NCBI GenBank assembly: GCA_016703535.1
Contig: JADJBV010000001.1
Location: forward strand, 385,014-449,013
Source of the DNA: Deltaproteobacteria bacterium
GTDB lineage: Bacteria; Myxococcota; Kuafuiibacteriia; Kuafuiibacteriales; Kuafuiibacteriaceae
Reading direction: 5' to 3'
DNA: 64,000 nt
Made by a program: the position numbers and the translations under genes. The stretch's first letter is position 1; the number at the start of each line of letters is the position of its first letter. Below, one piece after another: positions 9,568-37,104 of this stretch. A model generated the notes under the pieces. That model was not told the DNA's origin. It saw only the letters and a program-made list of their open reading frames with translations, and did not search any database.

Positions 9568-9932
9568 ACGACAAGCTGGTCACCGTCGAGGACTTCTTTT
9601 TGTTGCTCGGGAGCTTGCTCGAGTCGCGGCGCGCGGCCTTCCGTCGCCGCCTGACCTTGGCCTTTGCGGTGGTCGACGGTGGGCCGTGGTTCGTCGACAC
9701 CGGCGCCCCGCGGATCATCGTCCAGGAGTGGCGCCGAGACGCCCAGGTGTCGGTGTTGTGCAACCGTCGGACCCTGTCCGATCTCGTCGGCGGCCACTTC
9801 GATCCCAACGCCCCCGCCGCCGAGCACCTGTTCGTCTGGGGCGGCGACAAAGAGACCTTCTCCACCCTGGCCCAGGTGCTGGGTGGAGCCATGACCGCCT
9901 TCGGCGCCCACCTGTCGGCGCTGAAGAGATGA
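9564..9932 (+). CDS. SCP2 sterol-carrier-like domain protein of 122 aa.
   Basis: It starts at a GTG overlapping the upstream stop. The motif LSDLVGGHFDPNAPAAEHLFVWGGDKETFSTLAQV resembles the SCP2 consensus G..dp..a...G.lkv.Gd......l. Confidence 0.6.
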   Translation: MNDKLVTVEDFFLLLGSLLESRRAAFRRRLTLAFAVVDGGPWFVDTGAPRIIVQEWRRDAQVSVLCNRRTLSDLVGGHFDPNAPAAEHLFVWGGDKETFSTLAQVLGGAMTAFGAHLSALKR

Positions 9933-9942
9933 GGAGCAGCAA

Positions 9943-10818: not shown

Positions 10819-10821
10819 GCC

Positions 10822-13263: not shown

Positions 13264-13266
13264 CCG

Positions 13267-15975
13267 ATGGCCCGCCCCACCATTGCCACCGCGCCCGCGA
13301 CCATCAAGCCGTCGCGCTTCGGCCTCGCGCCGGAGCACGAGGCTTGGCTCAAGCAGGAGTTCGGCGAGCAACCGTCCATCCATGACCTCGACCGGGTCGA
13401 GCGGGCCGGCGGCCTGACCGCCACCCAGAAGCGCATCCTCGACGCCGTGCGCCGATCGGTGGTGGGCAACCTGCGGGCAACCGCGGGGGTGGCCTTCAAC
13501 AAGGACGGAAAGGTCGAGCCCGGGACTCAGCGGATCTGGACTCTCCGCACGGCCAAAGTGCCGACGGGCCACCTCTCGAAGGCCGCCGCCTTCGAGGCCG
13601 AGATGAAGCCGTTCCTGATCGGCCAGGTTGGGGCGCTCAAAGACTTCAAGCGTTTCCTCGACGCCTACAACCCCCTCGTCAAGAACACGCCGCCGATGAT
13701 GGTCATCGGCGGGGAGGAGGGCCACGGGAAGTCCGAGGCCTTGGATGGGTTGGCCAAAGCGCTCTTCGGCGAAGCGGCCACGGTGTTCACCGTCGACCTC
13801 AGCAAGGTCACCGACGACATGCACGACGCGCTCTTTTCGGCCGGCGGCAAAAAGGGCGATCTTTCGGTCCCCCGTCTGATGGAGATCGAAGACAACAAGT
13901 TGGGGATCGTCCACCTCACCGGGCTTGACCAGTTGAAGGCGCGGGCGCCCCAGATCGCCGACACCCTGCTCAATCGCTTGGGCTGCCGCGCCGACGACAA
14001 GGACCACGCCTGGGTCCCCTTCGTGCTCGACTTCGACAGCGCACCCGACACCAAGCTGGCCCCGATCCTCGAGGATGCCTTGGGCAAGGCGGCGGTCCTT
14101 TTGCGCAAGGCCCAAAGCTCCTTTCAGTATCTCGACGCGGACGCGATGGCCGAGTACCTGGAGATCGCCTTGCCCCAGCTCCTGCAGCGGCCAGGGCTGG
14201 GCCAACTCCACCTTGAGTGGGACGACGAGGCCAAGGCGGCCTTCGCCGAGGTCCTCGCCACCCGCTTGACGCCCATCGATCAATTGCAGCCCCGCCTGGA
14301 GAACCTGATCCTGGGGCCGGTCAGCGCCGAGATGGTCCCGGCCGACGCGTTGCTGCGGGTCCACCTCCTCGCGGAATACGCCGATCACCCGGACAAGCTC
14401 GCGGCGGCAATCAAGGAGCTGCAGGACCCGGCGCTGGACCTCCTCGAGGCGCCCCAGATCTTCACGGTCACCGAGGAGGGGCGGGTTGCGGATCCGGCCT
14501 TGGTGGAGGGACTGATCGAGAACTCGGAACAAGTGCTCGAAGCGCTGCTGCAGTGCTCCCAGCACCATGACCTGGAGGTCCGGCGGCTGTTCCCCGAGTA
14601 CGATCGGCTGGAGCGGCTGGACCAAGTGATGGGCGAGATGGCCACGGCGCTTCGCACGCGGGCTAGGCAGAAGGGCAAGCTGATCTTCGAGCCCGCGCCG
14701 CACGAGCGGCTGGGCGGGTTGGTCGCTGAATGCGAGAAGCTGGTCGCTCAGTTGGGCCGAATGACGGCGGAGCGGCAAGCGCAGCTCGATGTGTCGATGC
14801 CCGCCCACGTGGTGGTGGCCCTCCAGAGTGTCCTCGAAGGGGTGCGGCTCATCGCACAAGCCTCCGACCTGTTGCGCGGTGAAGCGCCGACGCCAGACGG
14901 CACGCGGGCCCACGCGGCGCAGCTGAACCGGGCCATCGAAGCCCTGACCAACGCCCGCGGGCTATTGCCGATCGGCAACCTGGGCAAAAACCGGATCACT
15001 CATCAGCTGCAGGCGCTGGCCGCGAAGTGGATCGAGGCGGTTGCGGTGGCGCGTCGGTCCCAGCAAGAGGGCATGTTCCCGCTGGTACTGGAGACCGACG
15101 CTCAGGATCTGATCGATGAGGCCCGAAAGCTCCGCGGCCAACTCCCGGTCAAGCCTTTGGCTAAGGGTGAGCGAGAGACCAACGTCCGGCGTTTGTTCGA
15201 GTCCAGTCCCGAGGCCAAGAAGGAGCTGAAGGACCTCGATCGTCTCGTCAAGATGACCATCGAAGTCGCCGAAAACCTGGGGGGCCTGTCGGACGCTCAG
15301 CGCAAGACGGTGGCAGACCTAGCCAAGGAGGAGAGCGCGGACTCGTTGTCCGCTCGTCGCAAGATCGCCAAGGAGCTGATCACCTGCGAAAACGGCGCGA
15401 CCGATGTCGACGAACGTCTGGTCAGGGCCGAGTTGATCAAGCTACCGAAGGCGGCGCTCGAGCGGCTCAAGAAGACCGAGGTGAAGGTCTACGTCGTGCG
15501 GGGCAAGATCACCGACTTCTTGAAGCAGCTCCCCAAGGGCGCCCGTCCGCCCGGGTACCCCGAAGGCAAGACCTTCGACGATGTGCCGGCGATCTTCGTG
15601 CCGAAGGAGGCTGAGGGCAATGACAAGGGGGACATCGTCGTCATCGTCACCAAGGAGGTGAATGGGAACGTGATCCTGCCCGGCCTCGACGTAAAGCGCG
15701 GCTACAACCAGGTCATCCACGAGTGCCTCCACGGCTTGGATGTGCAGAACTACTACAGCACGAAGGAGGAGTTCGTCTCGGCGAGAGAGGCGGAGCTGGG
15801 CGTCCTCAGCCAGTACGAGAAGCAGGCCAAGGAAGGGAACTTCGATCGGGGGGCCGCTGAGACCTGGGCCATCACCGGCGAGCGCCTCTATGGCGGCGAC
15901 GAGAGCGTTCGCAAGGAACGTCCGCTCCTCGTCAAGGTCGTCGAGGACGCCTTCGGGACAGGGGCGTTCGCATGA
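13267..15975 (+). CDS. Divergent ClpB-D2-like AAA+ module of 902 aa with a C-terminal zincin-type HExxH metallopeptidase-like domain.
   Basis: Walker A is GGEEGHGKSE. Walker B is the atypical IVHLTGLDQ, with DQ in place of DE. A long helical middle region follows. The C-terminal HECLH motif at 15718-15732 is preceded by the hydrophobic beta-strand stretch VILPGLDVKRGYNQVI, as is typical of zincins. Confidence 0.7.
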   Translation: MARPTIATAPATIKPSRFGLAPEHEAWLKQEFGEQPSIHDLDRVERAGGLTATQKRILDAVRRSVVGNLRATAGVAFNKDGKVEPGTQRIWTLRTAKVPTGHLSKAAAFEAEMKPFLIGQVGALKDFKRFLDAYNPLVKNTPPMMVIGGEEGHGKSEALDGLAKALFGEAATVFTVDLSKVTDDMHDALFSAGGKKGDLSVPRLMEIEDNKLGIVHLTGLDQLKARAPQIADTLLNRLGCRADDKDHAWVPFVLDFDSAPDTKLAPILEDALGKAAVLLRKAQSSFQYLDADAMAEYLEIALPQLLQRPGLGQLHLEWDDEAKAAFAEVLATRLTPIDQLQPRLENLILGPVSAEMVPADALLRVHLLAEYADHPDKLAAAIKELQDPALDLLEAPQIFTVTEEGRVADPALVEGLIENSEQVLEALLQCSQHHDLEVRRLFPEYDRLERLDQVMGEMATALRTRARQKGKLIFEPAPHERLGGLVAECEKLVAQLGRMTAERQAQLDVSMPAHVVVALQSVLEGVRLIAQASDLLRGEAPTPDGTRAHAAQLNRAIEALTNARGLLPIGNLGKNRITHQLQALAAKWIEAVAVARRSQQEGMFPLVLETDAQDLIDEARKLRGQLPVKPLAKGERETNVRRLFESSPEAKKELKDLDRLVKMTIEVAENLGGLSDAQRKTVADLAKEESADSLSARRKIAKELITCENGATDVDERLVRAELIKLPKAALERLKKTEVKVYVVRGKITDFLKQLPKGARPPGYPEGKTFDDVPAIFVPKEAEGNDKGDIVVIVTKEVNGNVILPGLDVKRGYNQVIHECLHGLDVQNYYSTKEEFVSAREAELGVLSQYEKQAKEGNFDRGAAETWAITGERLYGGDESVRKERPLLVKVVEDAFGTGAFA

Positions 15976-22761: not shown

Positions 22762-24048
22762 TCAGGGCACCCCGCCGCCGTTGAGGGCCACGCTGAGGCC
22801 GTAGCTGAGCGCGCCGATGCCCAGGCCGACCACCACTGGTAACCAGGGGATCTCGTTCTCATCCGTCAACAAGGACCCCAGGCTAAAGGCGGCGCCGGTC
22901 CCGACCAGGCTGTAGCCCAGGGGCGCGATCAAGACGCTCCCAGGGTTGACGTCCCGGGCCAGCTCACTTTGGTCGTTGTGGCCAAAGGCCAAGAAGGCGG
23001 AGTTGCTCTGGCAGTCTTCTGCTTCGAAGCAGGCCGTGGTGACGTCGCTGGGGTTGGTGACCGCCACGCCCACCAACGCTGCCCCGGCGATCGCGGTGGC
23101 GATGCCTCCCCAAAAGACGACCGCGTGGAGCCCGGCCGCCGAACCGGCCAGCCGAGCCGGCCGTGCGTCGATCCGGGCGGCCGCGCCCGCCGTGACGGTG
23201 ACGTCTTGTTGAAATGGGGCGTAGTCGGGGTGGACCAGCTCAACCCGGTGGGTCCCGGGCAACATCTGTAGGATCCGGGTGGTGCCGGGTTGGGTCGCGC
23301 CGACGGTGTCACCATCGATCGACACGCCCAGGCCGGGCTCTGGGCCCTCGATCACCAACTCGCCATAGGGGCGCCAATGCCCACCACTCTCGAAGAAGGC
23401 GCGAAAATCCTGGACCACCAATCGCTCGAGGAAGCTCCGAGTTTCGTCGGCATCCCGCACGTTGACCTTGATGGGCGGGATCAACACGGCGCTGCTGTTG
23501 ATCCGGGCCTCCACGTCGTCTTGCCAGTCGGAGACTTTACGAGAAGCGTCGTGGAACAAGTTCAACGCCCGGTCGGTGTCGACCAGGACCGCGGTCATCC
23601 GATCTTCTTCGCCCTCCAAGGTCACGTTGGAGATCACCAAGAGGTAGCGAGGGTAGGGCACCTTCTCCTCTTTGAGGCGACGCACGTGTTCGCGGTAGGG
23701 CAGGACCTGACCGTTCTCCGAGGGGCGGGCCGCGGGATCGTAGTCTCGGGCTCGGGCCTTCAGCGAAATGCAACCCAACTTGCCGCGGCACTCGATCATC
23801 ACCGCCGCGTCCAGGAGTTGGACGTTGAAGTCGGTCTCCTTGCGGAGGACCTCGCTGAACATCCGGATCACTTCGGAGCTGGAGGTCCGGGCGACCTCAC
23901 CGGTGGGGGTACCCAGCAGGAAGGCGAAGTTCTGGCGGTTCGGCAGGATGATCGCGCCGTCGGCTTGTTCGGCCTGGGCCACGCCGGTACCGGCCAAGGT
24001 CAACACCAAGGTCGACAGCCAGGGCCCAAACCAACGCACCCCCACCAT
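22762..24048 (-). CDS. Secreted 428-aa protein with a PEGA domain and C-terminal transmembrane segments.
   Basis: The start was chosen at the internal ATG 24046-24048 because it yields the signal peptide MVGVRWFGPWLSTLVLTLAGTGVAQA. The PEGA-like block is VSIDGDTVGATQPGTTRILQMLPGTHRVELVHPDYAPFQQDVTV. The 576-aa track ORF is a 5' over-extension of this gene. Confidence 0.65.
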   Translation of the reverse strand: MVGVRWFGPWLSTLVLTLAGTGVAQAEQADGAIILPNRQNFAFLLGTPTGEVARTSSSEVIRMFSEVLRKETDFNVQLLDAAVMIECRGKLGCISLKARARDYDPAARPSENGQVLPYREHVRRLKEEKVPYPRYLLVISNVTLEGEEDRMTAVLVDTDRALNLFHDASRKVSDWQDDVEARINSSAVLIPPIKVNVRDADETRSFLERLVVQDFRAFFESGGHWRPYGELVIEGPEPGLGVSIDGDTVGATQPGTTRILQMLPGTHRVELVHPDYAPFQQDVTVTAGAAARIDARPARLAGSAAGLHAVVFWGGIATAIAGAALVGVAVTNPSDVTTACFEAEDCQSNSAFLAFGHNDQSELARDVNPGSVLIAPLGYSLVGTGAAFSLGSLLTDENEIPWLPVVVGLGIGALSYGLSVALNGGGVP

Positions 24049-24120
24049 TCGGGCGAATGTTAACCGGGACCGGGCCGGCTGGCGAGTAGGGCGCCGACAG
24101 GCCTGATAGGCTCCAAGGCC

Positions 24121-25620
24121 GTGACCCCCTCGGTCCCAGGGCACACCCAGGTGTTGGTGATCGGAGGTGGGCCGGCCGGCGCGGGCGTGGCCACCGTCTT
24201 GGCAGAAGCGGGGATCCCGACCCTCCTCCTGGAGCGTCGCACCTTCCCACGGCCTCGGATCGGTGAGTCTTTGACCCCCAAGGTCACCCCCTTGCTCTCG
24301 ATCTTGGGGGTCCGGGAGCGGGTGGAGGGGGCGGGGTTCGTCCGGATGGCCGGCACCACGGTGGATCACGGCGCCGGTCGGGAGACCCACCTCTTCGATC
24401 CCGAGGGCCGACGTTTGGGGTACCAGGCCGATCGGGCCGTCTTCGATCAGATCTTGCTCCAACGGGCCAAGGCCGCGGGGGCCGAGGTCCACGAGGAGGT
24501 GAAGGTCATCGGCGTCTTGCGCTCGGGCACCCGGGTGGTGGGCGTCGAGTGGGCTTCACCGAACGGCAGCGGCCAAGTCGAGGCCGAGTGGGTGGTGGAC
24601 GCCAGCGGCGGCGCGGCGGTTTTGTCCAGGGCCCTGGGGCAACGACGTCGTGCCCTTCAGCGCACCGTCGCGTTGGCGGGATATTTTCGAGGAGGACGTC
24701 GCCCCACCGAACACCCGCCCGGCAACACCCTCTTCGAGATGATCGACGAAGGCTGGATCTGGTCGGTGCTCCACGCCGACGGTCGCCGCAACGTCACCTT
24801 GGGCCTGGACGCCGCCCGAGTGAGGGCCCGCAGCGCCAGTTATCTGGAGCTTTATCATCGCCTGCTGGAGCGTTCACGCCTGGTGGCACCTTTGCTGGTG
24901 GGGGCCACCTTGAGTGGTGGTTTGTCGGCCCACGACGCCACCTGGGCCCGCAGTGAAGCCTACGCGGGTGATGGTTGGTTGCTGTCGGGAGACGCCGCTT
25001 CGGTCATCGATCCCCTGACCTCTCAAGGGGTCTACAAGGCGCTCCAGTCGGCCATCGTGGGGGCGGCGGTGGTTCAGACCGTGCTCAAAAGACCGGCGGA
25101 TCGGGGCTTGGCCCTTCACTACTACCAAGAAAGCCAGGCCCGTTTTGCGGCCAACTACGCGGCGATCGCCCTCTCGTTTTACCGACGTTCTCCGCACCAA
25201 GAGCAGCCCTTTTGGCGGATCCGCACTCAGAGTTCCTTCGCCGACCACGCCGACGTTGCGCCCGCCGATCTCCAGGTCTTGGCCGAACGTCGTCGACACT
25301 TCACCGAACGGGTCACTCAAGCCGGTGGGGACCGGGTGATGCTCCGGGTTCGGCCCGGGATCCGGGTCGAGCCCCGGCCGGTGGCCGAAAGAGGGTTCAT
25401 CGAACTTCGCCCCGGGTGGGTCAGCGACGGGGCGCCGATCGACTCGGCTGGCGTCGATCCCGGGGCGTTGCTCCAGGCTCTGGGTGGGGGCACGGTCGCT
25501 CAGGCCTTCGAGGCGTACATCGCCCAGACCGGCCAAGAGCGCTCCAGCGCCTTGGCTCGCGCCTTGATGATCGCCCTCGGCAACTTGGCCGAAAGAAACC
25601 TGCTCGAACTCGCTGAATAA
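24121..25620 (+). CDS. FAD-dependent oxidoreductase, like a halogenase or geranylgeranyl reductase.
   Basis: The N-terminal Rossmann motif is VLVIGGGPAGAGVATVLAEAGIPTLLLER. It starts at a GTG. Confidence 0.65.
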   Translation: MTPSVPGHTQVLVIGGGPAGAGVATVLAEAGIPTLLLERRTFPRPRIGESLTPKVTPLLSILGVRERVEGAGFVRMAGTTVDHGAGRETHLFDPEGRRLGYQADRAVFDQILLQRAKAAGAEVHEEVKVIGVLRSGTRVVGVEWASPNGSGQVEAEWVVDASGGAAVLSRALGQRRRALQRTVALAGYFRGGRRPTEHPPGNTLFEMIDEGWIWSVLHADGRRNVTLGLDAARVRARSASYLELYHRLLERSRLVAPLLVGATLSGGLSAHDATWARSEAYAGDGWLLSGDAASVIDPLTSQGVYKALQSAIVGAAVVQTVLKRPADRGLALHYYQESQARFAANYAAIALSFYRRSPHQEQPFWRIRTQSSFADHADVAPADLQVLAERRRHFTERVTQAGGDRVMLRVRPGIRVEPRPVAERGFIELRPGWVSDGAPIDSAGVDPGALLQALGGGTVAQAFEAYIAQTGQERSSALARALMIALGNLAERNLLELAE

Positions 25621-25624
25621 CGCC

Positions 25625-28600
25625 TCAACTTCGCTTCGGGGCCCGGCTGCTCTTCTCTTCGGTCAGGGCGTTGAGCTTCATCAGCTCGATCAGCTCCAGC
25701 AAAGGACGGGAGAGGTTCCGCGACTCTTCCAGGCTCTGGGCCGAGGCCCGCACCAAAGGCAAAAGCGCTTGCTCCAGGCTTTCGGCGTGTTTTTGCAAGA
25801 GAGCTTGCACTCCCACCGGCGGCTCGTTTTTGACCGTCACCGCCAGATCCGCCGGCTTTTTCCCGAGGGCCGAAAGCGCTTGCTCCAGCCGCGCCAGGTG
25901 CGGCTCCAGCCACTCCTGGTTGCCGTCGGACTGCTTCTGCACGGCCTCCTTGAGCTGGGCTTGGATGCCCTCCAGCTGTTCGCCCAAGTTGCCCAAGGTG
26001 GAGGTCACTCGGGTCACCGGATCATCGTCGGCACCCCCAGCGACCTTGAGGCGGCGGAAGTCCCTTTTGATCGCGTCCCAGCGGGCCTTTTGCTCAGGGC
26101 TCATCATCCCCCGGAGTTCGGCGAACTTGAGCAGGTTGTGTTCGGCCCCGGTCGTCAAGGTCTGGGACTCGCCGGCGTAGTGATCGCCGATCAAGCGGTC
26201 CAGCTCCTCATCGTTCATGGCCGCCACCACCTTTTCGGCCAACTTGTTCATGTTCCGGTAGCTGCCTTGCAGCTTGAAGGGGGGTTCGGTCCGGAAGCGA
26301 TCGTCCTGGGACGCCGAGGCGATGTACTCAAGGTTGACGCGCAACAAGGTCTGCTGCACCCGGAACAGCCGGCGCAGGACGTTTTCGATCTCCTCGATCT
26401 CGGCCCGGGAATAGGAGTGGGCGAACTCGGTCTGGGCCACGTCTTCGCCCCTCACCCGGCGGATGAAGCGGTGCACGTCGTCCAAAGAACGGGTGGCCAC
26501 CGGCTGGAGCACCGCGTTCGAGGTGAGGGCGTTCTCCAGGTAGGAGAGGGCGAAGGTCTCTTCTTTGCCCCCCAAGATATCGCCCAGGTTGTAGGTGTCG
26601 GCTCGGTTGGCCAACATGTCGGGGATCTGAAACTTCTCGCCCGATTCCGTGTACGGGTTGCCGGCCATGACCACGCAGAACTTCTTGCCCCGCAGATCGT
26701 AGGTTTTGGTTCGGCCCTTCCACACGCCCTCGATCCGACGTTGGGCGTCACACAAAGAGATGAACTTCTGCAGCAGCTCTGGGTTGGTGTGCTGGATGTC
26801 GTCGAGATACAGCATCACGTTGTTGCCCATCTCGAGGGCCAGGTTGATCTTCTCCACCTCCTGGCGGGCGGTGGCGTTCGGCGCGTCGGCCGGATCGATG
26901 GAGGTCACCTCGTGCCCCAGGGCCGGGCCGTTGACCTTCATGAAGACGATCCCCAGCCGGCTGGCCAGGTACTCCATCAAGGTCGTCTTGCCGTAGCCAG
27001 GAGGAGAGATGAGCAACAACATGCCCATCAGATCGGTGCGCTTCTTTTCACCAGCGGCGCCGAGCTGCTTGGCCAGGTTGTCGCCGATCAACGGCAGGTA
27101 GACGTCGTTGATCAGCTTGTTGCGTACGAAGCTGGTCAACACCCGAGGCCGGAACTCCTCCAACCGCAAGCGGTTGCGCTCCCGCTCGACCAGACCCTGG
27201 CGGACCTTTTTGTACTCGAGGAACCCGGGGACACGCACCGCCCGAAAGTCACCGAGCCGGGTCAACAGTTCGTCGAGACGGATCTCCAGTTGGCGATCCA
27301 CCACCTTGGGGTGTTGGCCGAGGAGGCCGGAGGCCACCGCCCGCACCGGCGCGCCGTTTTCGTCCCGATCCAGGTGAGCCCCGGTCACCATCATCACCGC
27401 GGCCTCGAGCAGGGCGGGGCGCAGCGCTTTGATGCCTTCGTCGTCGGTTTGCTCCAGGTAGGCCTCGAACCAAGCTCGGGCCAGGCCGACCTGATCGGCC
27501 AAGCGCCCCTCCAAGGCCCGCAGGTCTTCTTCGAGATCGCCGCGGCCGTGGGTGCCATCCAGGTGCCGGAATAAGGCGTCCCTCAGCCGCACCGCGTCCG
27601 CGCTGATGGTGAAGCGGGGACGTTCGGCGGCCAACTCTTCCACCAGGTAGGCGCCGGCGAAGCGGGTTTCGGAGGGCGGCACCTTGAGCCCCAAGGCCTC
27701 GAGGAAGGAACGCACCTCGAGGTCCAACTCGGCCGCCAACTCGGCCTCGGCCCGGGGATTGGCGAAGCTCTTCCGCAGCCGGCCCAAGGAGCGGGCCCGG
27801 CGGTGAAACTGAACCTGGCGCTCCTTGCTGCTCGGGAAGGCCCAATAAAGGCAGGCCCAGGCCCGTGGTTCGGCGGAAAAACGCAGCAGGCCCGCGGTCG
27901 CCCGGATCGAGAGCAAACGCCCCAAGATGAGGGCGGTGTCGGCGTCGTGAAGGCCCCGTTCGTAGCCCTCGTCATAACGATCGACCATCGCGGCCCGGAC
28001 GATCTCCAGGAGCGCCGCCTCGTCCCGGGCCACCTCCTCGAGCCTACGCACCGTCAGCCCCCGCAGGCCGGCCTCGGCGTCGGCCAAGATCTGGGTGGCC
28101 AGGTATTCGCCTCGGTAAACCGTGGGGGACTCGGACACCAACTGCTGATCCCAGTAGTCCCGGTAGCGGTTGAAGTTTTCGTCTTCGATCGGCTCGTAGA
28201 GTTCGGTGCCGGTCAGGTGCAGCCACATGCCACCGTCTTTGGGCACGATGGTCAGCTCGAAGGCCTCGGTGTTGACCGAAAACTTGTGCTTGCCGAACTT
28301 GATGATGTTGGCGCCGTCCTCGTAGAGGTCCAGCTGGTCCCTGAGGTTGCGGACCGCGTCTTGTCGGGCCGACTTGAGCTTGGACTCGAAGTCGTCGGCC
28401 TTGACGCTGTCGCCCAGGTCCCGGAGCTGCTCGATGACCTGCCGCAACTTCAGGATCATCGCGTCCGAGGCAAAGTAGGCGTTCAGCTCGTCGTCGGCCT
28501 TGAAGCTCTTGGCTCGGCGCTGCACACCCTCGACGATCCGCTGGGCGGCGGCCGCTAGGTTCTGGGCCCGCCGTTGTCGTTCGTCCAACAGCTGCTGCTT

Positions 28601-30886
28601 TTTGGTGCCGAAGGCCTCGTAGATCTCTTCGCGTTTGCTCTGGAGTTCACTCAAGAACTCGTCGAACTCCGAAAACCGCGCCTCCAACTCCTGGAGCTGG
28701 ACCAACAAACGCGACAGACTTTCGTCGCACTTCTCCGGTTGATCGGCCAAGGCAACGCCGCTCTGCACCGCTTGGCCGAGCAGCTTGAACTGGGCCACGA
28801 ACTCGGCCCGGCCTTCTTTGCCGAGGAGCTCCTTCTTGCGCGCCTGCAGGGTGGCCCGGACCCGGTTCAGGTGGCCAAAGACCTCCGAGATCTTCTCGAG
28901 GATGGTGGTCCGTTGGGTCGGGTCATCGACCTCCAGGGTCGACACGACCTCGGAGAGCAGGTTCAGGCCTTCGGTCAGACCATCCAACTCGGTGGTCAAG
29001 GCCGGGAGGTCAGTCCCTTTTTGGGCGCCCTCCACCTTCCCGAACAAGGCCTCGATCTGCTGCACCAAGGGGCCCAAGGCCTCCTCGGTCAACATGAAGG
29101 CCACGCAACCTTTGCTGACGTCGTCGAAGGCCGCCTTGGCCTCTTCGCCCAACTTATCGAGGGCCGCTGTGTCGATGTAGCGGACGTCCCGCAGGGTGAT
29201 CAAGTGACCCCGGTGTTTGCGCAGCCGGGTCATGCCCTCCAGGAAGTCCGCGACCCGCCGCCAGTCCCGAGGGCGGAGGTCACCGATCAGCTGAGCGTGG
29301 CTGGTCTGAGCCTCGGTCAGGGCCTCGGCGGCCCGCTTCTGCATCGCCAGGACCTTCTCGAACTCGTCGATGATCAGGTCGGCGTTTTTCTTGATCTCCA
29401 GGAGCGGCGCGGCGAAGCGCCCCGTCTCTTCCTGGTCGAGCCAATAGTAGGCGTCGAGCACCCGGTTGGTGCTGGCGATCAGGTCCTCGTAGATCCGGCG
29501 GGTCGGCTTATCGCTTTCGATCAGCCGCTTCAGCGAATAGGCCTCCGAGATGCCTCGCACCAAATCGGCGTTGCCCACCTTGGATAAGTAGGAGCCGTCG
29601 GTCGGTTTTTCGGCGGCGAACAACTCGGACATGAACGGGGTCCGCCAGATCTGCATCGGGTGGACCCGGGTCGGTTCGTTGCCCGCCTGGCGGAACACCA
29701 CCATCGTGCCGTCGTCGAAGAGCGTAAAGCCGTGGCAGGTGATCGGGTTCTGAACTTCCTTGCGGATCAGATTGTACGGCAAAAGCAAATACCGGCCGTC
29801 CGCTTGGTGGTAGTAGACGTACAATACGTCTTCGCCGTTGGGGGAGCGCAACGAGCGCTTGAAGATCAGGTCCCCGATCTCGGCGTCGAAGACCTTGGTG
29901 TCACCGCTCTCCAGGTAATAACCGCCCGGGAAGACCAAGCCGTGATCTTCGGGGAGGCGCACGCAGGACTGGCCGATCGGGTCCAGCCGGGTGACGTCTT
30001 TGGTGCGGGAGTTGTAGACCAGGTAGCGGTGGGTGGTCTCTCGATAGGGTAGGATCTTGAGCAGGATCAGCCCGCCGACCTTGGCGTACCAGATCTCGGC
30101 GTCATCCAAGGCCTGGCGTTTGTCTTGGACCGGCTCACTGTAGACGCCGGCGCCGCTTTGGGTGTTGTTTTCGACCTTCACCGTCAGGTCGCCGCCCACG
30201 GTCTCCACGAAGATCTCGTTCAAGATGTTGACGTGGGGGTGGCGGCCCGAGACCTGGTCGTCTCGGCCGGTGCGGATCCACTCGAAGTCGTGAGAGGGCG
30301 GGAATTGGTGGTCTGAATCGCCGCGGTTGTCGACGTAGTTGACCTGGCCGTTGGGGGAGATGGCCCAGCGGAAGGCCTTGATGTCGGACAGGGCCAGGCC
30401 GACCTGGAAGACCGCCAACAACTTGCCCGGCTCGGGCTCCCGCACCACCAAAAGCCGCGCGTCTTTGTAGTACTTGTAGAGCTCAGCGAACTCGGCCTGA
30501 AAGGTGGGGTTGTCGAAGAGCCCCGGGATGCTGCCGAGGGGCACCGCCGACAGGTCGTAACTTTCACCGGTCTTTTCGCACTTGTGCAGCGAAAAGACGT
30601 CTTCCAACCGGGTCCCGGTCTTGAGCCCGAGGAAGACGTTGTAGCCCATGATCAACATCCCGCGGAGCTCGACGATGCTCCGGGGGATGCAGTTGTTTTC
30701 GGTGCGGATCCGCTCGTTGCCGATGACCGTCAGTTCGGTGCCACCAAAGGTGGCGACCCGCTTTTGGTTGAGCTGATCGGCCCGGCTGCCCAGGTCTTTG
30801 GCCTGGGTCAACAGGCGCTGGCGTAGGACCTCGTAGCTGCCGCCCTCAAGGGCGGCCTCGGCGTTTTGGCTCGCCTGCTCGCTCAT
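25625..30886 (-). CDS. Giant 1753-aa protein with an internal AAA+ ATPase module of the MoxR/AAA_5 type, encoded directly downstream of flotillin.
   Basis: Walker A is ISPPGYGKTT and Walker B is VMLYLDDIQ, followed by arginine-finger/sensor regions. It lies 33 nt downstream of the flotillin gene on the same strand. Confidence 0.75.
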   Translation of the reverse strand: MSEQASQNAEAALEGGSYEVLRQRLLTQAKDLGSRADQLNQKRVATFGGTELTVIGNERIRTENNCIPRSIVELRGMLIMGYNVFLGLKTGTRLEDVFSLHKCEKTGESYDLSAVPLGSIPGLFDNPTFQAEFAELYKYYKDARLLVVREPEPGKLLAVFQVGLALSDIKAFRWAISPNGQVNYVDNRGDSDHQFPPSHDFEWIRTGRDDQVSGRHPHVNILNEIFVETVGGDLTVKVENNTQSGAGVYSEPVQDKRQALDDAEIWYAKVGGLILLKILPYRETTHRYLVYNSRTKDVTRLDPIGQSCVRLPEDHGLVFPGGYYLESGDTKVFDAEIGDLIFKRSLRSPNGEDVLYVYYHQADGRYLLLPYNLIRKEVQNPITCHGFTLFDDGTMVVFRQAGNEPTRVHPMQIWRTPFMSELFAAEKPTDGSYLSKVGNADLVRGISEAYSLKRLIESDKPTRRIYEDLIASTNRVLDAYYWLDQEETGRFAAPLLEIKKNADLIIDEFEKVLAMQKRAAEALTEAQTSHAQLIGDLRPRDWRRVADFLEGMTRLRKHRGHLITLRDVRYIDTAALDKLGEEAKAAFDDVSKGCVAFMLTEEALGPLVQQIEALFGKVEGAQKGTDLPALTTELDGLTEGLNLLSEVVSTLEVDDPTQRTTILEKISEVFGHLNRVRATLQARKKELLGKEGRAEFVAQFKLLGQAVQSGVALADQPEKCDESLSRLLVQLQELEARFSEFDEFLSELQSKREEIYEAFGTKKQQLLDERQRRAQNLAAAAQRIVEGVQRRAKSFKADDELNAYFASDAMILKLRQVIEQLRDLGDSVKADDFESKLKSARQDAVRNLRDQLDLYEDGANIIKFGKHKFSVNTEAFELTIVPKDGGMWLHLTGTELYEPIEDENFNRYRDYWDQQLVSESPTVYRGEYLATQILADAEAGLRGLTVRRLEEVARDEAALLEIVRAAMVDRYDEGYERGLHDADTALILGRLLSIRATAGLLRFSAEPRAWACLYWAFPSSKERQVQFHRRARSLGRLRKSFANPRAEAELAAELDLEVRSFLEALGLKVPPSETRFAGAYLVEELAAERPRFTISADAVRLRDALFRHLDGTHGRGDLEEDLRALEGRLADQVGLARAWFEAYLEQTDDEGIKALRPALLEAAVMMVTGAHLDRDENGAPVRAVASGLLGQHPKVVDRQLEIRLDELLTRLGDFRAVRVPGFLEYKKVRQGLVERERNRLRLEEFRPRVLTSFVRNKLINDVYLPLIGDNLAKQLGAAGEKKRTDLMGMLLLISPPGYGKTTLMEYLASRLGIVFMKVNGPALGHEVTSIDPADAPNATARQEVEKINLALEMGNNVMLYLDDIQHTNPELLQKFISLCDAQRRIEGVWKGRTKTYDLRGKKFCVVMAGNPYTESGEKFQIPDMLANRADTYNLGDILGGKEETFALSYLENALTSNAVLQPVATRSLDDVHRFIRRVRGEDVAQTEFAHSYSRAEIEEIENVLRRLFRVQQTLLRVNLEYIASASQDDRFRTEPPFKLQGSYRNMNKLAEKVVAAMNDEELDRLIGDHYAGESQTLTTGAEHNLLKFAELRGMMSPEQKARWDAIKRDFRRLKVAGGADDDPVTRVTSTLGNLGEQLEGIQAQLKEAVQKQSDGNQEWLEPHLARLEQALSALGKKPADLAVTVKNEPPVGVQALLQKHAESLEQALLPLVRASAQSLEESRNLSRPLLELIELMKLNALTEEKSSRAPKRS

Positions 30887-30919
30887 CGACCCGGCCTCCC
30901 GTCCCGCCCAAAGTTGGGC

Positions 30920-33082
30920 TTATTCGTCGAGGCCCAGCTCCTTGGCCCGCTTCAGCAAGGTGCCCAACTTGGACTTGGTGCCCGAGTCTTGGGCTTCACT
31001 CATCAGCTTGCCGAGGAAGCCCGAGACCGAGAGGTTCTTCAGGTCCTCGCTGGAGAGGCCCTGCACCGCCTTCATCACCTCACCCGGGAGATCTTTGCTG
31101 CCGTCCAAATAGGGCTTCAGCACCTCTTGCACCCGCTCGCTGCCGTCGATGGCGCCGTCGATGGCCTTGCCCACCGAAACCGCGTTGATGAAGCGCTCGA
31201 AGAACTGGCCGTCGCCGCCCACGATGTTGATCTTGGCCGACTGGAAGGCCTGCTTGAGGATGTCGGCCCGGGACTTGGCCACCTCCACCCGAGTTTGGAT
31301 CTCGGCCAAGGCGATCGCCTTATCGCGTTCGATCCGCAGCCGGTACTCCTCGTGTTCGCGGCCCACGCCATCCAAGGCCTTCATCGACTCGGCCTTTTGC
31401 GCCAAACCAGTGGCCTCGGCGACCAACTTCTTCTCGATGGCCACGGCTTCGGCCAAGCCCATCTTCTCCTTGGCGGCGGCGTCGGCTTCCCCGATCCGCG
31501 CCTGGGCCAAGCCCTTCTCTTCAGCGCCCGCGGCCTCGGCCAAGAGGCGTTCCTTGACGGCCCGCGCCTCGGCCAAACCACGCTTTTCGATCGCACCCGC
31601 TTCGGCCTCTTGGCCTTGGGCCGCGGCCATCATCTGCTCTCGGGTGATCTTGGCCTTGGCGAAGCCTTCCTTTTCGGTGGCGATGATGTTGGCCTCTTTG
31701 ACTCGCACCTGGGCCAGACCTTCGGCGGCGGCTTCGGCTTGGATGCCCTCCGAGATCCGGATCTTGGCCTTGGCGTTGCGGTCGGCGGCCTCGAGGTCGG
31801 CGTCGGCCAGGGTCAACTTCTCCTTGGCCGCGAACTTGGCCACCTCTTGGCGGGCTTCGGCGGTTTTGGTGGCCTGCACCACCTGCTCCTGGGCCTTGGC
31901 TTCGGCGGCGATGATCACCGCGTCCTTGTTGCGGCGAGCCTCGGCCAACACCCGGGTGTCTTTGATCCGCTCTTCTTCTTCGGCGACGGTCTTGTCGACC
32001 GCGATCCGGCCGCGGATCACGTCGGCGATGGCCTTCTTTTCGATCTCGATCTCTTTTTCTTTGGCGATCCGAGAGAGTTCGGTCTCCCGCTCCCGGGTGA
32101 TCTGCTCGAGCATCCGGTCTTTTTCGACCCGTTCGGTCTCGACCGCGATCACCCGCTCCCGGTTCTTTTGGGCGACCTGGATCTGCCGCTGTTTGGCCTC
32201 GTCGTTCACCTTGACCTCTTCTTCGGTCTTGATGCGGGCCAACTCGGCGCTCTTGTAGGACTCGGCCTGGACCTTTTGGGTCTCGGCTTCTTCCCGGGCC
32301 TTCATCGTGGCGATCTCTCGGGCCTGTTTGATCCGGGCGTCTTGCTCCTGGCGATCGAGGGCCAAGACCGCCTCGGTGGCCTCCACGTCCTGCTTCTTGA
32401 TCGCCTTACGTTCGTTTTGGCGCAGGTCGTTGGTCTGTACGTTTTGAACCGCGGTCAGCTCGGTGATCTTACGGATGCCTTGGGCGTCCAAGATGTTGTC
32501 CTTGTCCAAGGACTCGATCGGGGTCTGCTCCAGATAGTCGATGGCGGCGTCGTCCAAGACGTAGCCGTTCAGGTCGCGGCCGATGGTCCGGATGATCTCG
32601 TCCTTGAAGGACTCTCGTTTGGTGTACAGCTCCTCGAAGTCGAGCTGCTTACCGACGGTCTTCAGCGCCTCGGAGAACTTGGCCTGGAAGAGGGCCTCCA
32701 TGGTGTTTTGGTCGGAAGCCCGGACACAGCCCACCTGCTGGGCCACCTTCAACACGTCTTCGGTGGTCTTGTTCACCTTCACGAAGAAGGTGACCTTGAT
32801 GTCGGCCCGAATGTTGTCTTTGCAGATCAGGCCTTCTTTGCCGCGCCGATCGGTCTCGATGGTCTTCACCGAGATGTCCATCAACTCGGCTCGGTGGATG
32901 ATCGGGATGACAATTCCGCCGGTGAAGGTGACCAGGGGCTCCCGGTTCATCTTGTTGATGATCAAGGCTCGGCCTTGTTCGACAGTGCGGTAGAACTTGG
33001 CCACCGCAAAGGCCAAGCCCGCCACCACGATGATGGTGCCGACGATCGCGACACCCATGATCAGCAAGTTTTCGATAGCCAT
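30920..33082 (-). CDS. Flotillin/SPFH-domain protein like YqiK or FloT, 720 aa, with an extended C-terminal coiled-coil region carrying GLAEA repeats.
   Basis: It has an N-terminal transmembrane helix and an SPFH block QGRALIINK...VKTIETDRRGKEGLICKDNIRADIKVTFFVKV. A long Glu/Ala/Lys-rich coiled coil follows, with the repeated motif (K/M)GLAEA(R/V)A. Confidence 0.85.
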   Translation of the reverse strand: MAIENLLIMGVAIVGTIIVVAGLAFAVAKFYRTVEQGRALIINKMNREPLVTFTGGIVIPIIHRAELMDISVKTIETDRRGKEGLICKDNIRADIKVTFFVKVNKTTEDVLKVAQQVGCVRASDQNTMEALFQAKFSEALKTVGKQLDFEELYTKRESFKDEIIRTIGRDLNGYVLDDAAIDYLEQTPIESLDKDNILDAQGIRKITELTAVQNVQTNDLRQNERKAIKKQDVEATEAVLALDRQEQDARIKQAREIATMKAREEAETQKVQAESYKSAELARIKTEEEVKVNDEAKQRQIQVAQKNRERVIAVETERVEKDRMLEQITRERETELSRIAKEKEIEIEKKAIADVIRGRIAVDKTVAEEEERIKDTRVLAEARRNKDAVIIAAEAKAQEQVVQATKTAEARQEVAKFAAKEKLTLADADLEAADRNAKAKIRISEGIQAEAAAEGLAQVRVKEANIIATEKEGFAKAKITREQMMAAAQGQEAEAGAIEKRGLAEARAVKERLLAEAAGAEEKGLAQARIGEADAAAKEKMGLAEAVAIEKKLVAEATGLAQKAESMKALDGVGREHEEYRLRIERDKAIALAEIQTRVEVAKSRADILKQAFQSAKINIVGGDGQFFERFINAVSVGKAIDGAIDGSERVQEVLKPYLDGSKDLPGEVMKAVQGLSSEDLKNLSVSGFLGKLMSEAQDSGTKSKLGTLLKRAKELGLDE

Positions 33083-33214
33083 GTTCCCCTCACCTCAAGG
33101 CCTTTAGCGGGCCGACTGCTTCGCGGCCCGTGGTAGTACGGCTCAGACCGCCCGGCAAGGGACGGCCCGGAGCCCAGAAAATCCGTGTCTTCGGGCGTCG
33201 ATGGGCTCAGCGCC

Positions 33215-33988
33215 TCACGACGGATCCTTGGCGATCAACTCGCGTTCACTTTTGGTCAGCCCTTCGACGCGATAGGCCTCTTGCGCCGCGTCGTAGCCGA
33301 TGATCAGCGCCTCTTGACCGCGTTCGAAGGTCTGGCCGGCGTCGGCCCGCACCTGGATCACGAAGGCGTCGGCGCCCTCTTCGATGGTGGCTTGGCCGAA
33401 CTTGTGGTCGACGTTGGCGGTGCTGATCCGGCAGGTCCGCCCCACCAGATCCCGTCGTCGACTGGCCTCTTTGGTCCGAAAGAAGCGCTCCAGAGGTTTG
33501 GTCGAGAGCCGAGTCGCCGGGATGGAGGCGAAGGTGGCCAGGGCCATCACCAAGATCCCGGTGACCACGTGGGGCACGTAGGGATCGAGGACCGGCGAAA
33601 GCCACCGCATCAGGAACATCGAGGCCACCCAGCCGATCAGCGCGATCAAGCTCAGGGTGACGGTCACCGGGACCCGCCCGAGGCCCAACCAGGAGAAGAA
33701 GGTGAGGAGGGAAAGGCCCTCGTGGATCTCGTGGACGGCTTCGCCCGCGGCTTCGGCCTTGGCGAAGGCCGCGTCGGCGATCCCATCGAGTTTGGCGGAG
33801 GCGGCGTCGCCGAGGCCGTCGAGTTTGCCGGTGGCGGCGTCGGCCAGGCCGTCGAGTTTGCCGCCGAGGAAGTCGAGGTCGAGGGCCCCGAACATCACGA
33901 ACAGCCAGTAGAGGAGCATCAACACCGACAGGCCGGTGAAGATGACGGTAGGAAAAGCCAAAGTCTGGATGAGGAAGCTTTGGAGCAC
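33215..33988 (-). CDS. NfeD/YqiJ-like membrane protein, the flotillin-associated OB-fold protein.
   Basis: It has a multi-pass transmembrane N-terminus and a C-terminal beta-barrel segment LVGRTCRISTANVDHKFGQATIEEGADAFVIQVRA. It lies upstream of flotillin, matching the yqiJ-yqiK arrangement. Confidence 0.7.
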   Translation of the reverse strand: MLQSFLIQTLAFPTVIFTGLSVLMLLYWLFVMFGALDLDFLGGKLDGLADAATGKLDGLGDAASAKLDGIADAAFAKAEAAGEAVHEIHEGLSLLTFFSWLGLGRVPVTVTLSLIALIGWVASMFLMRWLSPVLDPYVPHVVTGILVMALATFASIPATRLSTKPLERFFRTKEASRRRDLVGRTCRISTANVDHKFGQATIEEGADAFVIQVRADAGQTFERGQEALIIGYDAAQEAYRVEGLTKSERELIAKDPS

Positions 33989-34110
33989 AGGAAACCTTCA
34001 GCCCGACGCCGGGAATATGAACACGCTTTGGCCGGTGTCTACCGGCCGGCCCGACCTTCGCCCGAGTTGGGGGTTGCCGCAACCCGGGTCCCGACTAAGA
34101 TGCAGGTCCG

Positions 34111-37104
34111 GTGAGTGTGGTGATCCTGGTTGGCCTCGAGGGCCCCGCTCGCACCCTGTCGCAGACGCTCGCACGTCTGTTGGGCCTGGAGTCGGAGCAC
34201 GTCGCCACCGCCGAAGAGGCCCTGCGCCGTCCCCCCGAAGGCCCGATCCTCACCCGAATGCGGCTGCCTCGCCTCGACGGCGCGTCTCTGCTTCGTCGGG
34301 CCAGCTTGGCCACGCCAGGGCGTCGGGGGCTGCTCCTGACCGCTCGCCCGATCGGGGGTCCTCCATCGTTGGCCCTTGATCCGAGGTGGCATCGGATCGT
34401 CGCTCCCCACCAGACGGGCCCGCTCTTCGAGGGCCTGCGGTGGGCCAGCGGCGTTGAGGTCCCGGAGCAACACCGGGCGTTGATCGCGGCCTGGCGGCAG
34501 GGGCCCGAGAGCCTCGCGATGAGAGTGCAAGACAACTTGCACTCCCCCGGTGAAGAACTTTCGGTGGGCCTGGAGCTGGTGGCCCATGCCTCTCCCCCGG
34601 GCGCGGCCCTGGCGACCTTGGGGCAGTGGTTGAGCGCGCCCGTCCTTCCGCCCGCGGTCGCCGAGCGGATCCTGGCGCTCCTGCCGCGTTTTTTTGGCGC
34701 CGGCCTGGACTTGGTGGCGGCGATCGCCCGGCGCGCCGAGTTGCCCCCAGCGCTGCGGGCCCGGGCCATCCAGGAGTTGGGCCGTCGGTACCCATTGGCG
34801 GCTTCGCAAGTTGTCTTGCAAACGCTCTTGGCTGATCCGTCACCCTGGTGCCGCTCCGAGGCGGCCCACGCCCTGGTCGATGGCGCCCGGTCGGCGGCGG
34901 CCCAACGGGACACGGTGCGGCTGGTGGGCGGCCCGGCCCACGACGTCTTGGTCGCCCTCGCAAAAGACGTTCGGGTCGATCCCGAGGCTCGGGGCCGGGC
35001 GGTCGAACTTTTGGCCAAAGAGGCCCCTACGGCCCAGGTGCTCCCGTTGTTGTCCGCGTTGGCCGCTTCACCCGCGGGCGAGTTGGCGACGGTCGCCTCC
35101 CGGTGGCTGGTCCGGGCCGATGGGCTGGAGGCCGACGCTCAACGACAAGTGGTCGAAGACGAGGCCCGTCCCTTGGCCGAACGACGTTTGGCCTTGGAGC
35201 ACTTGGCGCTGCAATTGCCCGAGGAGCAAAGCGCGCCGCTGCTCGAACGGGCCGAGTCGAGCCCCACCCCTGAGCTCCGCGATCGGGCGCTCCAGCTCCA
35301 CTTCGCCGCCGCCGAAGGCGGCCTGGACGACAGCTTGTTGAGGGCGACCCACGGCGGTCGCAGCGCCCAGCGGGCCGCGCTGCTCGGGGCCTTGGAGCAA
35401 GGCCGAGGTTCACCGACGGGCCTCTTGGCGATCGCCGCCTCTGGCTTCGAGGACGAGCTGGTGGTGGCCGCGCTCCGGGTGTTGGGCGCCCGCTACGACG
35501 TGACTCAGGTCGGACCGGCCTTGCGCGCCGCCTTGGCCGACGATCGACCGAAGGTCCGCGACGCCGCATTTTTGGCCTTGGTGCAGCAGGGCGAGCGAGC
35601 TTGGCCCCTCCTGATGGAGGTCGCCCAGGACGCGGCCTTGCCGACCACCGTGCGGGCCTCGGCCCTCGGCGAGTTGGCCGAGGCGGCCGAACCCGAGCGG
35701 GTCCGGGCCACGGCCCGAAGGCTGGCCAACGATCCCGATCCCCTCTTGGCCGCCGCCAGCGTCAGGGCGGTGGTCTTGTCGGGGGCCACGGCCCTGGCCG
35801 AGCTGGCGCCACGCCTGGCGGCCCGACCCCGGACCGAACACTACCAAGGGTGGATCGAGGGGGCCTTGGCCCTGGGCACCTACGGCTACGGCGCCTTGGC
35901 CTTGTTGGTCGCAGATCCGGCGGCCCCGATCCCGATCCGCGGCGAGGCCCTACGGCGGGTGCTGTCGGAGTTTGGCGAGTCGGATGCCCAGCCTTTGTTC
36001 GACGCCGCACCACCCGAGGTGCAGGCCTTCGCTCGCGGGCCAGTGGCCGCGCCAGCGCCCGCGGTCGCCCCTTCGCCTCCGAGCGACGGAGAAGACGCCG
36101 CAACCCAGCCTGCAATCCCCGCGTTTGTCCCGGCCCCCGGATCAGGGAGCGGTGAACCACGGCGGCGTCGTCGACCCAAGTCGGGGGTGGCCGAGGCGCC
36201 GTTGGAGGCCCCGGCGTCTCCGCCGGCCAGCGCGCCCGAAGATGATCACCCCGAAGATCGGGCGCCCACCAAACCCGTGCCGCCGGCCCAAACCCCCGCG
36301 TCGACTCGGCCCGCGTCCACCCCACCCGCGTCCACTCCACCCGCGGCCACGCGGCCCGGGCCCGCCGGGACCTCACCGATCCCCCGGGCCTCGTCTTCTC
36401 GGCCCCGGGCCCCCGCGACTCAGCCCGGGACCCAAGACAGCCTGCCGCCGATCCCCAAGGACCGGGCCGAACAGGTGCTCGAGGAGTGTATTCGCCAGGG
36501 GCCCGCCGGTCTGCGGGGCCTGAAGCTCCTGGCGCTTTCACCCCGGGTCCCAGATCCGGTGCGGGCCGCCGCGGTGCGCCACTTGGCGTCGGACTTCGAC
36601 GACGCCCAACGGGGGGATGTGTTGACACGTTGCCTGCGCGGGCCGCCGATGGTGCAAGCGACCGCCCTTGGCTGTTTGATGGTCCAAAAGGAGCCGCCCC
36701 GGGCCGCCCTCGAGGCCTTGGCCATGGAGCCGGACGCCGAGCTGAACACCCGGCTCCGAGCTCTACGTTTTTTGGCCTCACGATTTGGGCGGCACCAGGT
36801 CGCGCCGCTGTTGTTGCGGGCCTTGGAGTGTGGCCAGGCCGAGCTGGAGCGGGCCGCCCTCGAGTCCCTCTTCACCTCGATCCGCTTTACGCCCGAGCTC
36901 GCGGTGGAGGAGGCGCTGGTCAACTTGCTGCGGGAACACGAGTCGCTGGAGGTCAAGACCTGGGCGGCCCAAGCCCTCGGCACTTTTGGCGGTGCGGGGG
37001 CCTTGCCGCACCTCGATCACTTCACCGGCCTCTTCGCCGAGGTTGAGGTGAAGGCGGTGGCCAAACGAGCCCGCCAGCGGATCGTAGCCCGGCTCAGGGG
37101 ATGA
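34111..37104 (+). CDS. HEAT/PBS-lyase-like repeat protein of 997 aa with a receiver-like N-terminus and a Pro/Ala/Thr-rich low-complexity linker.
   Basis: Repeated (P/A)xxRxxAxxAL(G/A) helical pairs occur throughout. The protein starts at a GTG. Confidence 0.6.
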   Translation: MSVVILVGLEGPARTLSQTLARLLGLESEHVATAEEALRRPPEGPILTRMRLPRLDGASLLRRASLATPGRRGLLLTARPIGGPPSLALDPRWHRIVAPHQTGPLFEGLRWASGVEVPEQHRALIAAWRQGPESLAMRVQDNLHSPGEELSVGLELVAHASPPGAALATLGQWLSAPVLPPAVAERILALLPRFFGAGLDLVAAIARRAELPPALRARAIQELGRRYPLAASQVVLQTLLADPSPWCRSEAAHALVDGARSAAAQRDTVRLVGGPAHDVLVALAKDVRVDPEARGRAVELLAKEAPTAQVLPLLSALAASPAGELATVASRWLVRADGLEADAQRQVVEDEARPLAERRLALEHLALQLPEEQSAPLLERAESSPTPELRDRALQLHFAAAEGGLDDSLLRATHGGRSAQRAALLGALEQGRGSPTGLLAIAASGFEDELVVAALRVLGARYDVTQVGPALRAALADDRPKVRDAAFLALVQQGERAWPLLMEVAQDAALPTTVRASALGELAEAAEPERVRATARRLANDPDPLLAAASVRAVVLSGATALAELAPRLAARPRTEHYQGWIEGALALGTYGYGALALLVADPAAPIPIRGEALRRVLSEFGESDAQPLFDAAPPEVQAFARGPVAAPAPAVAPSPPSDGEDAATQPAIPAFVPAPGSGSGEPRRRRRPKSGVAEAPLEAPASPPASAPEDDHPEDRAPTKPVPPAQTPASTRPASTPPASTPPAATRPGPAGTSPIPRASSSRPRAPATQPGTQDSLPPIPKDRAEQVLEECIRQGPAGLRGLKLLALSPRVPDPVRAAAVRHLASDFDDAQRGDVLTRCLRGPPMVQATALGCLMVQKEPPRAALEALAMEPDAELNTRLRALRFLASRFGRHQVAPLLLRALECGQAELERAALESLFTSIRFTPELAVEEALVNLLREHESLEVKTWAAQALGTFGGAGALPHLDHFTGLFAEVEVKAVAKRARQRIVARLRG

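Follow-up and report, generated by a model that had tools for sequence, protein, structure and literature searches.

A YqiJ-flotillin locus with a giant AAA+ ATPase as a further example of the abbreviated form of a conserved, probable envelope-stress operon

Why a gene for a 1753-amino-acid (aa) AAA+ ATPase should lie directly behind a flotillin gene pair is the question raised by a locus in a 64-kb window (the whole stretch of DNA analysed here, ~67% guanine-cytosine (GC) content) of contig JADJBV010000001.1 from a Deltaproteobacteria bacterium (assembly GCA_016703535.1). The flotillin operon yuaF-floT of Bacillus subtilis contains two genes, and in the yqiJ-yqiK operon of Escherichia coli, whose genes are homologous to the first two of the window locus and stand in the same order, a third gene is missing: yqiK (553 aa versus 720 aa for the flotillin of the window) is followed by sibD/ibsD, in agreement with the statement of the initial annotation that the canonical yqiJK operon has two genes only. 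The identity of the three-gene module can be given with high confidence, and the window locus is a further example of an already described module, not a discovery. That it represents, as a whole, the abbreviated form of a conserved envelope-stress operon in which the ATPase remodels flotillin-based assemblies is the reading favoured here and is considered somewhat probable.

The three open reading frames (ORFs), of 257, 720 and 1753 aa, were recovered by the ORF check where they had first been annotated, at 33215–33988, 30920–33082 and 25625–30886, all on the minus strand, and encode a YqiJ-type membrane protein, a YqiK-type flotillin and a DUF3686-family AAA+ ATPase. The first two genes are separated by 132 nucleotides (nt; 33083–33214, minus strand), whereas only 33 nt (30887–30919, minus strand) lie between the flotillin gene and the ATPase gene, a spacer that carries a short hairpin, GCCCAACTTTGGGC, without a T-run, and then a GGGAGG ribosome-binding site. 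Terminator-like sites on the minus strand were sought in both gaps and none was found, so a terminator separating the genes, named at the outset as evidence against an operon, is not present there; an intrinsic terminator in the 33-nt gap was considered and rejected, as the hairpin is terminator-like on the plus strand only, where no gene ends. Upstream the locus is bordered by a divergent HEAT-repeat gene (34111–37104, plus strand) and downstream by a convergent flavin adenine dinucleotide (FAD)-dependent halogenase-like gene (24121–25620, plus strand), and the three genes form a strand-contiguous, operon-like unit between these neighbours. A single sigma-70-like promoter match (TAGACA-16-CATATT, 34014–34041, minus strand) was observed between 25000 and 34600, 26 nt upstream of the YqiJ-type gene, a weak, consensus-only match of which 0.5 would be expected by chance in that interval. 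Only 4 nt separate the stop codon of the halogenase-like gene from that of the ATPase (25620–25625), which leaves no space for separate terminators at this point.

The conservation of this linkage was assessed by scanning one genome per species for the ATPase, which gave at least 552 positive stretches or species, and by retrieving 80 loci (Myxococcota, ~25; Actinomycetota, 23; Gamma- and Betaproteobacteria, 28; Planctomycetota and others). By tblastn with the window proteins, 77 of the 80 loci have a flotillin gene on the strand of the ATPase gene and upstream of it, which makes 77 of the 78 with upstream sequence, as L053 and L081 contain no sequence upstream of the ATPase. After ORF refinement the gap between the two genes is 462 nt or less in 75 loci, with a median of 63 nt, and the stop and start codons overlap in about 14 loci (by 1–8 nt in 13 of them), while a YqiJ-like gene was detected upstream in 70 loci. 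The same gene order was also observed in plasmid records of Hymenobacter (Bacteroidota) and Deinococcus (Deinococcota), and at least six phyla retain both order and linkage. The adjacency is thus neither unique to this genome nor an exception in a family otherwise unlinked to flotillin, the two outcomes of a co-occurrence survey that would have told against the initial annotation. That an unrelated giant gene came to lie beside an ordinary yqiJK-type pair by chance, in favour of which the existence of two-gene yqiJK operons can be cited and nothing more, is refuted by the order and strand kept across phyla and by the stop/start overlaps, and retains virtually no probability. Additional genes were observed around the ATPase gene in some lineages, namely a small ORF of 80 aa with weak TerB/EF-hand-like matches, which separates the flotillin gene from the ATPase gene in some loci of Pseudomonas and Lysobacter (L061, 9584–9826; also L036, L063 and L069), lies downstream of the ATPase in L050 and L084, and is absent from the window and from P. 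aeruginosa; and rhomboid protease and/or PLD(HKD) genes directly after the ATPase gene in many gammaproteobacterial loci (L061, 15199–16440; L086, 12260–12952).

An operon composed of a band-7/flotillin protein, a YqiJ/YuaF protein and a beta-propeller AAA+ ATPase has already been described by Ravi et al. 2024 (mSystems, PMC11237479), in forms with an upstream CesT/Tir-PspA pair and in more widely distributed "abbreviated" forms, with a PLD gene added in some Proteobacteria. The window locus contains a band-7 flotillin, a YqiJ-type gene immediately upstream of it and a propeller/coiled-coil AAA+ protein (DUF3686, DUF7902 and AAA) in the published order, on one strand and with short gaps. Because tblastn with Pseudomonas and Hymenobacter proteins found no PspA, DUF2170/Tir or PLD gene in the 64 kb, it is assigned to the abbreviated three-gene form, from which it is no different in kind. 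A split between lineages was observed as well: of the 28 proteobacterial loci 16 carry the PspA pair, and of the 48 loci of Myxococcota or Actinomycetota none does. PspA-linked forms were encountered in Proteobacteria and Bacteroidota alone, the abbreviated ones in Deinococcus and in all 48 myxococcotal and actinomycetotal loci. What is added here to the description of Ravi et al. is this lineage split, the linkage counts and the MoxR-type assignment of the AAA+ module.

Among the nearest described relatives is the "biofilm-associated cluster" bacABCDEF of Pseudomonas aeruginosa (PA3732–PA3727; PA14_16140–16200). The locus reads DUF2170, PspA, a 213-aa protein, a 688-aa protein, a 1746-aa DUF3686 ATPase, PLD, YaeQ, RecJ and LasB, an order that identifies the ATPase as PA3728 (PA14_16190, bacE), the flotillin as PA3729 (bacD, PaFlo3) and the YqiJ-like protein as PA3730 (bacC). 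The genes bacC, bacD and bacE are orthologous to the window genes and lie in the same order on one strand, whereas BacA (DUF2170, CesT/Tir-like), BacB (PspA/IM30) and BacF (PLD/HKD, PA3727) are all lacking from the window, whose host is high in GC and apparently Myxococcota-like rather than a Pseudomonas. Transcription of bacA to bacF as one unit was found by reverse transcription PCR (RT-PCR), and their products jointly over-accumulate in a bacA mutant (PMC10948618), BacA affecting the operon negatively according to the Pseudomonas literature; BacB (PA3731) builds up when cells form biofilm or undergo osmotic shock, and for the operon a putative sigma-54 site has been noted (PMC2587700); and PA14_16190 has been named as an ATPase under RsmA control (PMC8855297). 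The window has no credible sigma-54 promoter: a match at 34078–34093 (minus strand), considered as a promoter of the bacA type, has 3 mismatches and was rejected because such matches occur at chance level (205 observed versus 210 expected).

The ATPase itself (25625–30886, minus strand) shares 49.5% identity over 1708 aa with BacE, and its closest named relatives belong to Myxococcota or "Deltaproteobacteria" (58–66% identity), with metagenome proteins at 87–95%. The ~1100 N-terminal residues, for which the initial annotation had proposed a domain analysis, yielded a DUF3686 beta-propeller, DUF7902 and helical regions. The DUF3686 domain occupies aa 31–481 (29444–30796, minus strand; E=8.9e-201) and is followed by a long helical/coiled-coil region at aa 482–860 (28307–29443, minus strand), which includes DUF7902 (aa 602–686), and by a mostly helical middle domain at aa 861–1240 (27167–28306, minus strand). 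AlphaFold models of the two halves, built from 31-sequence alignments (mean predicted local distance difference test (pLDDT) 85 for the N-terminal and 81 for the C-terminal half, mostly above 90 in the middle domain), predict an all-beta propeller at about aa 50–415 and then long helices to about residue 860. In Foldseek the beta region resembled generic propellers such as Sec12, CyRPA, the WD40 domain of DCAF1 and IFT-A (E of ~1e-6 to 1e-5, 7–11% identity), and for the middle domain no structural match other than AAA+ proteins stood among the listed matches.

The AAA+ core at aa 1285–1480 (26447–27034, minus strand) bears a Walker A motif (26981–27007), a Walker B motif (26798–26812) and a beta-hairpin before sensor 1, and is followed by the AAA+ lid and a C-terminal helical region (aa 1481–1753; 25628–26446, minus strand) ending in a long helix of lower confidence. 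A MoxR/AAA_5-type module had been recognised from the beginning, and this held in both respects, with an AAA_5/AAA profile match at aa 1290–1415 and a modelled structure closest to MoxR proteins; the ATPase is predicted to be soluble and MoxR-like and to lack a protease domain. The Walker A lysine K1300, the Walker B residues D1362-D1363, the sensor-1 residue N1410 and the candidate arginine finger R1428 are invariant, which suggests an active enzyme. Full-length members of the DUF3686 family, which matches 788 representative clusters at 50% identity, are all 1590–2036 aa long with the domain at the N-terminus, indicating a fixed architecture.

More than 6,500 homologues of the ATPase are held in databases, most of them under the name "DNA repair ATPase", and a function in DNA repair, as given by this product name of NCBI and by the Pfam description of DUF3686, has to be weighed. 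Apart from the database names, it can draw on weak RuvB sequence matches around the P-loop (E ~1e-5 to 1e-2) and on the presence of RuvB among the Foldseek matches, but the RuvB NCBIfam score is 23.7 bits against a cut-off of 282, the PDB sequence matches span only ~50 residues, and the profile and PDB sequence scans gave no full-length match to a repair-ATPase family and no DNA-binding or nuclease domain. The product name is without support, and a repair function is very improbable. Searches of the literature for DUF3686 by name, or for flotillin paired with a "DNA repair ATPase", returned no papers.

The flotillin (30920–33082, minus strand) comprises an N-terminal membrane anchor (aa 6–28), an SPFH domain, an EA-rich coiled coil with GLAEA repeats and a C-terminal tail. 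The SPFH/Band_7 domain (aa 33–175; 32558–32986, minus strand) matches PF01145 with E=3.8e-13 and 50.3 bits against a cut-off of 23.6, a match obtained only when the N-terminal fragment (aa 1–232) was scanned separately, while the full-length protein gave no match in Pfam, NCBIfam or PDB sequences and its C-terminal 295 aa, where a Flot domain would be expected, no significant match in Pfam. The empty full-length scans are an artefact of the HMMER bias filter, which the use of fragments resolved. Members of the same subfamily at L001 (5696–7858) and L086 (4785–6851) behave alike, being without a Pfam match at full length and marked "-" in precomputed annotations, with N-terminal fragments that match Band_7; co-occurrence surveys based on Pfam will therefore miss the partner of the ATPase. 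The alignment with E. coli YqiK (29% identity over 429 aa, E=2e-37) reaches into the coiled coil, and that with BacD (PA3729) covers 643 aa at 50.7% identity. Together with the Band_7 match these confirm the designation as a flotillin/SPFH protein with coiled-coil GLAEA repeats, but the 720 aa, at first regarded as unusual, are a typical length in this subfamily.

The third partner, encoded at 33215–33988 (minus strand) with a GTG start, is a multi-pass membrane protein of the YqiJ/DUF1449 type ("short NfeD-like"). Its match to the YqiJ_N profile (E=0.0035) remains below threshold, whereas it aligns with E. coli YqiJ at E=2e-4 and with BacC (PA3730) at 26.7% identity and E=3e-22, and a hidden Markov model (HMM) built from 45 orthologues matches YqiJ at E=1.2e-7, including a C-terminal segment aligned to YqiJ residues 130–191. 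The label "NfeD-like" of the initial annotation is accordingly right in placing a YqiJ/YuaF-type partner with several transmembrane segments upstream of the flotillin and is not borne out with respect to the NfeD domain itself: the Pfam NfeD C-terminal OB-fold domain gave no match at E<=0.1, and as the protein matches YqiJ (DUF1449) instead, "YqiJ-type" is the safer name.

On this basis the YqiJ-like protein and the flotillin would build a membrane-anchored SPFH assembly, on which the soluble ATPase may dock through its propeller or its coiled-coil/helical parts; as an oligomeric MoxR-type motor it could then spend adenosine triphosphate (ATP) on the assembly, disassembly or remodelling of the flotillin scaffold or of clients held there. 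Where lineages add the CesT/Tir-PspA pair, PspA polymers could be its target instead, and membrane maintenance under stress would presumably be the overall role. The proposal of the initial annotation, that a giant ATPase partner suggests energy-driven remodelling or scaffolding, is supported as an interpretation by the conserved linkage and the terminator-free gaps, the mechanism being conjectural. Comparable arrangements are known. In the HflK/HflC-FtsH complex of the inner membrane an SPFH cage surrounds an AAA+ machine, and the window module likewise pairs an SPFH-family scaffold with an AAA+ ATPase, a likeness by analogy, as FtsH is a membrane-anchored protease of the classical AAA+ clade. 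In Vps4-ESCRT-III and PspF-PspA an AAA+ ATPase is likewise encoded with a membrane-remodelling polymer, and the proteobacterial and Bacteroidota version of the module is fused to a PspA operon; however, the window ATPase is homologous to neither Vps4 nor PspF, and its operon is without PspA. A stronger version, in which the ATPase is a dedicated ATP-driven machine for assembly or disassembly of flotillin scaffolds, in function the counterpart of Vps4 for ESCRT-III or of FtsH in HflK/C, independent of PspA in Myxococcota and Actinomycetota, with the propeller-helical scaffold as a membrane-proximal, coat-like adaptor, is possible but rather doubtful; if true, no energy-consuming remodeller of an SPFH microdomain would have been known before it. 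According to a 2025 review, bacteria appear to be without a Vps4-like ATPase (PMC7619361).

Several observations weigh against the remodelling of flotillin assemblies by the ATPase. Its contact with flotillin and the hydrolysis of ATP are steps of the model that we infer, and its Walker B motif is DD, not DE. One locus (L067) has an ATPase gene without flotillin within 10 kb, the partners being truly absent, and in two others the flotillin and ATPase genes are separated by unrelated insertions (in L015, genes for OmpA/DUF11 surface proteins; in L080, from Lampropedia hyalina, a NYN-domain gene and an MNT/HepT nucleotidyltransferase/RNase toxin-antitoxin pair at 6841–9935). Deletion of paFlo3 (bacD) lowered biofilm by ~20% with no other phenotype (PMC13086221). 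Compared with the MoxR family (CbbQ, NorQ and RavA), the window ATPase adds ~1,280 N-terminal residues of propeller and helical domains. Its closest AAA+ relatives, CbbQ and NorQ, act together with VWA partners, and their substrates are enzyme complexes rather than scaffolds; a scan of ten flanking genes (17202–42178) found no VWA protein, the nearest VWA_2 match lying ~20 kb away in the gene at 23–5935. This kinship brings up the alternative of a MoxR-type maturation chaperone, which, like CbbQ, NorQ and RavA, would have a different membrane enzyme or complex to remodel or activate and for which the flotillin and YqiJ-like protein would be a mere platform or recruiter. The missing VWA partner tells against it as well, both among the flanking genes scanned in the window and in the annotated loci of P. 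aeruginosa, Hymenobacter and Deinococcus. In Myxococcus the opposite strand does encode a VWA-domain protein ~0.8 kb downstream of the ATPase gene (L001, 14373–16157, minus strand), for which the other annotated loci showed no counterpart; apart from the flotillin and the YqiJ-like protein no neighbour is invariant, no conserved client candidate emerged, and the chaperone explanation is considered unlikely.

An anti-phage or conflict system, in which infection sensed at the membrane would trigger a response, protective or abortive, and PLD or rhomboid proteins would be the effectors of the proteobacterial versions, would account for another set of observations. Every P. aeruginosa sample infected with phage showed up-regulation of PA3728–PA3732 (PMC12041424); the distribution within Pseudomonas is patchy, as would fit horizontal transfer (PMC13086221); in many gammaproteobacterial loci the ATPase gene is followed by PLD(HKD) and rhomboid genes; and the L080 operon encloses the toxin-antitoxin cassette with its NYN gene. 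However, induction by phage is general among envelope-stress genes of the PspA type and does not make them defence systems. The window version carries no PLD, rhomboid or other effector, and PADLOC-DB v2 gave no meaningful match, only LmuB (7.8e-9) on the coiled-coil region and none for the flotillin and the YqiJ-like protein. Of 50,697 phage records none contains DUF3686, and of 72,556 plasmid records 13 do, mostly megaplasmids or chromids. A defence function is quite unlikely in view of these results, and the envelope-stress operon with flotillin-directed remodelling remains the preferred reading.

The interest that remains lies in the biochemical job of this conserved AAA+ partner of bacterial flotillin, as the operon sets a conserved and, from its invariant motifs, probably active AAA+ motor beside flotillin in at least 552 species and bears on how bacterial flotillin and PspA assemblies are dynamically controlled. 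The abbreviated form shows that the core unit consists of the YqiJ-like protein, the flotillin and the ATPase, not PspA, which makes Myxococcus, actinomycetes of the Streptomyces group and bacE of P. aeruginosa practical for testing ATP-driven flotillin remodelling.

The composition of the window around the operon was also inspected. GC falls to 62–65% across 26–34 kb, against ~67% elsewhere in the window; this dip was rejected as a sign of horizontal transfer, as third-position GC of the three genes is unchanged at 0.86–0.87, like that of the neighbouring genes, and it therefore stems from the first and second codon positions in genes of K/E/A-rich coiled-coil proteins. Beyond the halogenase-like ORF (24121–25620, plus strand), a PEGA-domain ORF (22762–24492, minus strand) overlaps it by ~370 nt at the 5' ends, which puts one or both of the listed starts too far upstream. 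A second AAA+/propeller protein is present in the window, of 813 aa (10822–13263), with AAA_2 and Kelch repeats, in a plus-strand region (9943–15975) where it is flanked by unannotated ORFs and a 902-aa protein with a weak match to an anthrax-lethal-factor-like metalloprotease; upstream of it lies the gene at 23–5935 (plus strand), which encodes the 1970-aa protein with the VWA_2 match.

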